From the NCBI GenBank assembly GCA_951406725.2, contig OX597831.1, positions 58,218,001 through 58,282,000 of the forward strand: a DNA stretch of 64,000 bases, given 5' to 3'. Origin of the DNA: Octopus vulgaris (lineage: Eukaryota). The notes under the pieces are model-generated. The model was not told the DNA's origin, searched no databases, and was given only the letters and a program-made list of their open reading frames with translations. This document shows positions 62,731-63,422 of the stretch, piece after piece. How positions within the stretch are numbered: the first letter of the stretch is position 1; every line of letters begins with the position of its first letter. The translations under genes and the position numbers were made by a program.

Positions 62731-63422
62731 ATAAATATAAGAGAGTAGCCACTATGTGGTCTACTCTAGCACTAAAAATAGATCCGCTAGGTTTCAGCCA
62801 CAAAAGAATTGTTTCCGATGAAAGTTAGCACGACTACTAGCGCACTAAGCCACTTGGTGTTAAATGGATGTACTATTAAATTAGTATCCAATTTTCTCAC
62901 CCTTATTAGTTGATTGTAATTATGCTACATTTAATTTTGGATGTAGTATCTGTTTCCGTGAATTTTGGCGGGCCGTGGCAGGGGCACTTGAATTATAACA
63001 GAGAATGCAATCGACTGGACCTCACGTGTGTTTATCGTTATGGTGAAATCTAGTGTGCGGTCGAGTAAATTGTATTCTGGACGGGTTCGGCTGAAGAGCT
63101 ACTGATATATGTTATGTGAGTAAAATTACATAATTTATTTATTAGCGAAACAATTGTCCTGAACTAATCCGCATTTTTTAATGTTTATTTGCCCTGTTCG
63201 TTTGGGCTAGTAGTCGTACTAACATTCATCGGAAACAATTCTTTTGTGGCTGAAACCTAGCGGATCTATATTTAGTGCTAGAGTAGACCACATAGTGGTT
63301 ACTCTCTTATATTTATGTATAAAATTTATCGTAATCCGGGTTTTTTATGCACTAAGCCACTTGGTGTTAAATGGATGTACTATTAAATTAGTATCCAATT
63401 TTCTCACCCTTATTAGTTGATT
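62731..63422. mobile_element. Retrozyme-like element: 507-nt monomer with 74-nt terminal redundancy plus 111-bp inverted arm, within (TA)n
   Basis: 62842-62915 = 63349-63422; 62731-62841 is approximately the reverse complement of 63206-63316. Confidence 0.9.
63084..63165 (+). ncRNA. Type I hammerhead ribozyme, canonical core, GUC site (predicted cut after 63158)
   Basis: GGTTCGG-CTGAAGA-GCTA..(AU-rich hairpin)..TAGC-GAAA-CAATTG-TC-CTGAACT; palindromic stem III ACAATTGT. Confidence 0.88.

Follow-up and report, generated by a model that had tools for sequence, protein, structure and literature searches.

A two-armed, ORF-less hammerhead tandem element with Penelope-like insertion anatomy in the genome of Octopus vulgaris

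Introduction

The stretch of Octopus vulgaris DNA analysed here (64,000 nucleotides of contig OX597831.1, hereafter the window) carries, near its right-hand end, a short non-coding insertion with one hammerhead motif, an inverted arm and a direct repeat of 74 nucleotides. The question that this locus raises is what kind of element it represents and by which machinery it was inserted. In the initial annotation it was regarded as a candidate retrozyme, with a partial tandem of the Penelope type as the alternative explanation. The two are not alternatives, because the full Penelope signature, i.e., partial tandem, inverted 5'-truncated arm, tail at one end only, and (TA)n target, is present in the family to which the window copy belongs, so that the family is both. 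With a probability that we would put at about 80%, the window copy is a hammerhead tandem element without ORF (a non-LTR retrozyme) that was inserted with two arms and has the anatomy of a Penelope-like element; the enzyme that placed it in (TA)n was likely a Penelope reverse transcriptase (RT)-endonuclease acting in trans.

Animal retrozymes have been suggested to be non-autonomous Penelope derivatives (PMC7229834), and the same derivation has been argued from co-occurrence and pseudo-LTR phylogeny in vertebrates (bioRxiv 10.64898/2026.07.22.740005). In the accessible parts of this literature, mobilisation of retrozymes is approached through these two lines, with no mechanism given at the level of the insertion. 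A literature search, with Repbase and Dfam outside its scope, yielded no description of the present family; octopus, hammerhead ribozyme and Penelope were found together solely in PMC8557442, as far as its accessible text goes, and the accessible part of the octopus repeat annotation PMC13282606 makes no mention of ribozymes or retrozymes. The family bears on two questions, namely which enzyme moves animal retrozymes and whether RNA circles really serve as template.

Anatomy of the Window Copy

Comparison of the sequence with itself returned the 74-nucleotide identity and the 507-nucleotide spacing exactly where the initial annotation had placed them (62842-62915 and 63349-63422), the identity extending in neither direction. 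The period of the proposed 507-nucleotide monomer stands, while its start at 62842 is an arbitrary phase; the genomic unit is 62916-63422, and an RNA monomer of the family would span the distance from cut site to cut site. The 74 nucleotides, taken for a terminal redundancy of fixed size, are really a truncated upstream unit. The inverted arm does end about 106 nucleotides before the end of the long arm, as had been noticed: 62726/62731-62841 is identical to 63206-63316/63321 at 111 of 116 positions (96%) and stops about 101-110 nucleotides short of 63422, where TA obscures the precise position. The (TA)n runs beyond both outer ends were recovered as well (Table 1), and the unit is devoid of an ORF, its longest ATG-initiated frame comprising 43 amino acids.

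Table 1. Positions of the features of the window copy.
Feature	Position in window	Strand	Remark
(TA)n target, left side	62498..62730		TA-repeat run charted 62498-62739
Inverted 5'-truncated arm, 'short' end, no tail; unit positions about 288-400	62731..62841	-	Match to 63206-63321
Head-to-head junction, 3-nt overlap (microhomology)	62842..62844		Gap of -3 at L001 (window copy)
Final 74 nt of preceding unit (partial tandem, pseudo-LTR)	62842..62915	+	Exact repeat
Full 507-nt unit, 36% GC, no ORF over 43 aa	62916..63422	+	Circular fold z -5.7
Type I hammerhead	63084..63165	+	Read from sequence; covariation in three subfamilies
'Short' fixed end, putative second start site of reverse transcription	63312..63321	+	Family arm ends
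'Tail' of ~106 nt between both fixed ends; 63422 is the 'long' end	63317..63422	+	Family arm ends
(TA)n target, right side	63423..63633		TA-repeat run charted 63422-63633

Differences between the two arms are found at 4 of 106 positions, which marks the window copy as an older daughter insertion. It is a monomer with a single hammerhead, and with one ribozyme the release of unit-length RNA by that copy alone is impossible. The assignment as a retrozyme is supported for the family, with its ORF-less tandem units and its conserved type I hammerhead, whereas the window copy, ordinary within its family, is not a promising source of a circle. The young arrays of one subfamily (S2, see below) are the better experimental material.

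The Hammerhead Motif

A single hammerhead with perfect core, 7-bp stem I and self-complementary stem III had been reported for the unit, and all of these elements are seen in the sequence. Both core boxes are intact (CUGAAGA at 63091-63097 and GAAA at 63147-63150); stem I is formed by 63084-63090 and 63159-63165, the long stem II extends over 63098-63146, and stem III comprises 2 bp closed by AAUU, with the palindrome ACAAUUGU at 63150-63157. The cleavage triplet is GUC, and the predicted cut lies after C63158. Stem III is absent from the predicted fold of the monomer; for the self-duplex of ACAAUUGU a value of -6.4 kcal/mol was computed, and the palindromes of two copies could pair with each other, a dimer arrangement that is described for metazoan hammerheads (PMC4209133). 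In Rfam, this hammerhead was detected neither at the gathering score nor at E<=10, and the matches of the window to miRNA and other Rfam entries were rejected as noise from TA repeats.

Two hammerhead patterns gave 786 and 2,214 matches genome-wide and none in reversed controls, and the hammerhead is therefore not due to chance. The core is perfect in 35 of 45, 180 of 199 and 27 of 34 anchored motifs of the subfamilies S1, S2 and S3, respectively, the set of 199 having been gathered by a core pattern, with a few false anchors. Common to the three subfamilies are the core boxes and the ACAAUUGU palindrome; stems I and II vary in a compensating manner, stem I reading GGUUCGG/CUGAACU, GUYUUGG/CCAARAU and UACUCUA/UAGAGUU by subfamily. 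In S3, the base of stem II contains a U.U mismatch, and the triplet is GUA. Across 20 rows, 93.8% of the stem cells were paired and 43 two-sided changes were counted, with slid controls at 40% or less; the number of pairs changed on both sides was not significant (60 of 500 shuffles). Since the sample represents only three lineages and its rows were mostly picked for an intact core, the covariation is good, not strong, evidence of selection on cleavage.

A Dispersed Family with Three Subfamilies

The host genome searched comprises 2.8 Gb. A DNA search with the unit, in which 40 of 1,904 candidates were scored, produced 117 matches, the 30 best of them with 87-96% identity, and the family amounts to 2,214 hammerhead motifs genome-wide. 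S1, the subfamily of the window copy, has a unit of 507 nucleotides. The unit of S2 measures 532-537 nucleotides (about 534) and is about 75% identical to that of S1; this subfamily is very young. The S3 unit is about 528 nucleotides long and about 70% identical over the aligned part. With longest ATG-initiated frames of 43, 57 and 38 amino acids, the three subfamilies have no coding capacity; the GC content of the family units is 0.34-0.36.

A genome survey for tandem copies and for a range of redundancy lengths, as the initial annotation had proposed, encountered both across the family. Arrays with at least two full units number 24, and consecutive hammerheads are also present at L015 in the window's own S1, where the 59 sampled arms reach at most 1.5 units. 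In the head-to-head arrays of S2, single arms reach 13 hammerheads, and a locus that exceeds the retrieved sequence has at least 18; these arrays are very young, some units being identical between loci. Assembled contigs from runs that are merely presumed to be RNA cover both subfamilies and are uninformative on transcription, ends or circles. At another locus (L134/L225-L227; G000:C13:22646146-22647880), an S3 tandem array with a period of 594 nucleotides includes a minus-strand unit without hammerhead. At the level of the family, the assignment as a non-LTR retrozyme is supported, every testable feature having been found; self-cleavage is predicted from the sequence, and unit-length circular RNA is proposed.

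Insertion Ends and Probable Penelope-Type Priming

The insertions were mapped at 112 loci (36 of S1, 49 of S2 and 27 of S3); outside this tally of ends are the one atypical array of about 594-nucleotide units (L225-L227) and two further family copies (L256, L269). The arms end almost exclusively at two fixed places, which correspond to the long end and the short end of the window copy (63422 and about 63312-63321), and the tail between them measures about 110, 133 and 106 nucleotides in the three subfamilies. Two arms are present at 72 of the 112 loci. Among these, 63 combine a long with a short end, while neither a long/long nor a short/short pair occurs; seven have a non-canonical end and two exceed the retrieved sequence. 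As L008 and L010 are one segmentally duplicated insertion, the independent long/short insertions number at most 62. The remaining 40 loci are one-armed, with 15 long and 25 short ends. A (TA)4 stretch lies within 60 nucleotides outside 164 of 174 canonical arm ends. The inner junctions are scattered; of 67 that fall within 100 nucleotides, 34 are overlaps, 6 are blunt and 27 contain extra bases. The length of long-ended S1 arms, less one unit, ranges from -459 to +241 in 28 arms, the excess over one unit being 18, 42, 55, 74, 97, 112, 130, 210 and 241 nucleotides. A repeat of 74 bp is thus not fixed in all copies, as a TRIM-like LTR would have it, and occurs once; 5' truncation varies continuously in length, and the 74 nucleotides mark where this cDNA stopped, not an LTR. 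Taken together, this is a dispersed family with fixed outer ends, long/short pairing, variable junctions, (TA)n surroundings, homogeneous arrays and a covarying hammerhead.

These features are typical of Penelope-like elements, whose described structure comprises a partial tandem, a truncated copy in inverted orientation, a tail on one side and insertion into (TA)n (PMC8557442, PMC3846280); (TA)n is also the target of the Hydra and Naiad elements. In vitro, both strands are cut and extended by a Penelope protein, which favours AT-rich DNA and initiates at a pair of internal sites flanking the tail (PMC11167929, from its accessible part). Priming on two strands in the manner of Penelope is, in our view, very likely the way in which the present insertions were formed. 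According to the proposed pathway, multi-unit read-through transcripts of an array would self-cleave via dimeric hammerheads into unit RNAs, which would be ligated to circles. A Penelope protein, probably as a dimer, would cut both strands of the (TA)n target, and the two 3' ends would serve as primers for copying the same kind of template, the first from the long start site and the second from the short site about 106 nucleotides upstream. Each cDNA would continue across the cleavage junction for a variable length, in the window copy for 581 and about 111 nucleotides, respectively, and eventually the two truncated cDNAs would be joined head to head.

Two young autonomous Penelope families, one Hydra-like and one Neptune-like, reside in the same genome and serve as in-genome control. 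The Hydra-like family has a 727-amino acid frame with RWK and DKT motifs, a minimal hammerhead-like motif, a 71-nucleotide tail and a (TA)n target; among 45 of its loci, the two-armed insertions are 14 long/short, none same/same and one other. This family (L210-L224, e.g., G000:C4:134760500-134770400) gave 24,464 first-look candidates and no Pfam match, and a PDB search with its protein returned nothing significant. The Neptune-like family (L122-L128) is young and contains RT-GIY-YIG frames of 781 amino acids with an upstream ORF of 250-480 amino acids; the pattern used found no canonical hammerhead in it. An autonomous element sharing the unit sequence was found neither in 50 GIY-YIG loci nor in 30 Hydra-like loci, these searches having scored small samples (150 of 6,136 and 137 of 24,464 candidates), and 53 loci of other hammerhead motifs yielded no partner but further copies of the same family. 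Searching the window by tblastn with the two Penelope proteins gave no match, and the element has no ORF for RT plus GIY-YIG. As neither autonomous family shares sequence with the unit, we infer the mobilising enzyme from its footprint. Fragments of Penelope ORFs near some copies (L017, L030, L084, L088, L242 and others) are read as independent insertions, because in the five that were inspected (TA)n or other sequence intervenes between fragment and element. The family works like a non-autonomous Penelope element and does not have the properties of an autonomous one.

Nature of the Template and Alternative Routes

Evidence on the template comes from 129 full units of 34 loci. Units of one insertion differ by 1.1 substitutions and those of opposite arms by 0.88, as against 14.6 for units of different loci. 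Of the 16 arrays that have at least three units, 6 possess an array-private allele that is present in every unit and absent from other loci, and across the 34 loci with full units no minor allele is shared between loci. Homogeneity within an insertion together with array-fixed alleles indicates that both arms copy the same template variant and that variants go through a bottleneck of a single unit. A cut linear monomer, on which synthesis would stop at the cut site, is ruled out as template, because 5' ends do not pile up there (3 of 181 within 3 nucleotides, 2.4 expected) and the 7 nucleotides after the cut site are free of indels in 129 of 129 units. Circularly closed units fold far better than shuffled ones (z -5.7 and -6.9; 40 shuffles). 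The homogeneous multi-unit arrays and the scarless read-through of the cleavage site fit a circular RNA template, although they do not prove it, since homogeneous parent arrays would likewise yield homogeneous daughters. On balance, we lean slightly towards a circle over an uncleaved multimer as template.

The strongest competitor, possible and yet on the doubtful side, has the same two-strand insertion by Penelope proceed on an uncleaved linear multimer transcribed from the parent array, with the hammerhead trimming ends or acting late and no circle being involved. With a Penelope protein in vitro, cleavage was not needed and uncleaved RNA was the main substrate (PMC11167929), and only one of nine frog retrozyme dimers was cleaved (bioRxiv 10.64898/2026.07.22.740005, accessible part). 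The limit of 1.5 units in S1 arms speaks for a linear template as well, and the absence of truncation at the cut site is equally compatible with it. Against it, an allele that is fixed throughout one array and found at none of the other 33 loci calls for passage through a single unit; moreover, there are no recurrent minor alleles, the shared variants of L080 are out of register between the arms, and arms of 13 to 18 or more units would have had to come through intact despite as many functional-looking ribozymes. With 34 loci sampled for full units, the power of these comparisons is low.

Neither simple model accounts for eight variants, found in 6 of the 16 arrays, that occur in several units each, some of which are not neighbours. 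In L080, L143 and L175, locus-private variants are spread over units that do not adjoin, and at L080 they are seen in both arms; one of the variants at these three loci alters the hammerhead core from CUGA to CCGA in 7 of 10 units. These scattered variants might reflect gene conversion, an error of the assembly, a switch of template or the repeated misreading of a single template base. Returning to the circular template, we tentatively propose, at somewhat less than even odds, that the insertions might be the footprint of rolling-circle reverse transcription, in which a Penelope dimer, primed from both strands of one cut in (TA)n, would copy a single ribozyme-made RNA circle, with one subunit per start site, into two head-to-head arrays of up to 18 or more units. 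If so, scattered variants in both arms would record the repeated misreading of one modified template base, animal retrozyme circles would be tied mechanistically to Penelope, and tail and inverted arm would be the product of one event.

Expansion of single short Penelope-type insertions into minisatellite arrays at a later stage, by unequal crossover or slippage, is a route suggested in bioRxiv 10.64898/2026.07.22.740005. Some shared variants do lie in adjacent units (L062, L076, L078), and homogeneity could be explained by gene conversion; however, both inverted arms are often multi-unit (e.g., 4+6, 7+3 and 2+3 full units) with one shared haplotype, and the arrays are very young, with units identical between loci in some cases, which leaves this route unlikely.

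Still less probable is the formation of the inverted arm by a self-primed fold-back or by LINE twin priming, although self-priming has been proposed for head-to-head Penelope repeats (PMC3846280) and a few junctions are symmetric (L009, 392/392; L025, 7/7). At most junctions, different positions of the unit are joined, and a strict rule of one long and one short end presupposes two defined start sites. In addition, poly(A) is absent and the arms overlap in sequence, which to our knowledge LINE twin priming does not yield.

A TRIM-like or MITE-like element with a fixed 74-nucleotide direct repeat or a fixed 111-nucleotide terminal inverted repeat, as which the single window locus would appear in isolation, can be dismissed, since repeat and arm lengths vary continuously in the family, only the outer ends are fixed, and the variable redundancy across the mapped loci refutes terminal direct repeats of fixed length.

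Further Hammerhead-Like Motifs and Repeats

A second, unrelated hammerhead-like family is represented in the window at 40810-41100. Its head-to-head arms lie in (TA)n or (TC)n, the short end following the core by about 100 and the long end by about 160 nucleotides; it has 2,653 candidates in the genome, and most of 11 loci possess one end of each kind. The hammerhead-like motif at 53884 (CUGAAGA ... GAAA, stem III UCAC/GUGA; region 53600-54195) is located near inverted segments, of which the pair 53768-53813/54149-54194 was confirmed, and is probably a third family of this type. A possible minimal hammerhead at 16291 (16291-16345) adjoins (TA)n, while a match at 12099 was discarded as unconvincing. 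Elsewhere in the genome, another non-coding hammerhead family (L255-L284 and L297; G000:C4:67233000-67239500) accounts for most of 193 pattern matches; it has the same AAUU stem III, ends about 80 nucleotides apart and an AT-rich non-coding body of roughly 3 kb.

The window also contains ORF fragments of non-LTR retrotransposons (RVT_1, zf-RVT, zf-CCHC) at 26010-28873, 29379-31253, 49650-51058, 52204-53316 and 60203-61470, none of which matched the two Penelope proteins. A perfect (ACC)256 run at 17327-18095 may be real or a feature of the assembly, and two inverted copies of a SINE-like repeat, 92% alike, are found at 59008-59199 and 61765-61956.

Comparison with Known Systems

The family shares with metazoan non-LTR retrozymes the ORF-less tandem units, the type I hammerhead and the weak palindromic helix III (PMC7229834, PMC7761336, bioRxiv 10.64898/2026.07.22.740005), as well as a GC content under 45%, a strongly self-paired fold, the range from monomers to multimers and the co-occurrence with Penelope. 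Its unit of 507-535 nucleotides is above the 150-450 nucleotides of PMC7229834 and inside the 51-972 nucleotides of bioRxiv 10.64898/2026.07.22.740005. It differs in that its arrays lie in (TA)n as a head-to-head pair of arms with two fixed ends; a signature of inverted arm and tail in retrozyme arrays is not described in the accessible parts of the first and the last of these papers.

With endonuclease-bearing Penelope elements (Hydra, Neptune), the family has in common the partial tandem, the inverted 5'-truncated arm and the one-end tail (PMC8557442, PMC3846280, PMC11167929), further the hammerhead upstream of the ends, the (TA)n target and the microhomology junctions. Unlike these, it has no RT-GIY-YIG ORF and many full units per arm, its sequence matches neither of the two autonomous families examined, and its tail of 106-133 nucleotides is three times as long as the 30-40 bp usual in Penelope. 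Non-autonomous Chlamys elements (MRC1) are likewise of the Penelope type, with pseudo-LTRs and multicopy head-to-tail insertions; in contrast to the present family, they generally have 3' sequence in common with one of the autonomous families, and their clade lacks canonical hammerheads according to the accessible part of PMC8557442. Plant LTR retrozymes resemble the family in being non-coding, in having a hammerhead and in the proposed circular template; their own characteristics are a type III hammerhead, fixed LTRs, PBS/PPT, a 4-bp TSD and a Gypsy partner (PMC7761336), and the family has neither a fixed LTR nor a type III motif.

Summarizing, the class is a known one, and what is new here is the link of retrozyme arrays to the Penelope insertion mechanism, with a strict long/short rule. 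Strict pairing in multi-unit arrays makes the mechanism of mobilisation directly testable. Owing to this rule, to its youth and to the intact Hydra-like and Neptune-like ORFs acting on the same target, the family is a ready test system, for the retrozyme cycle and for the two-strand priming model of Penelope alike.
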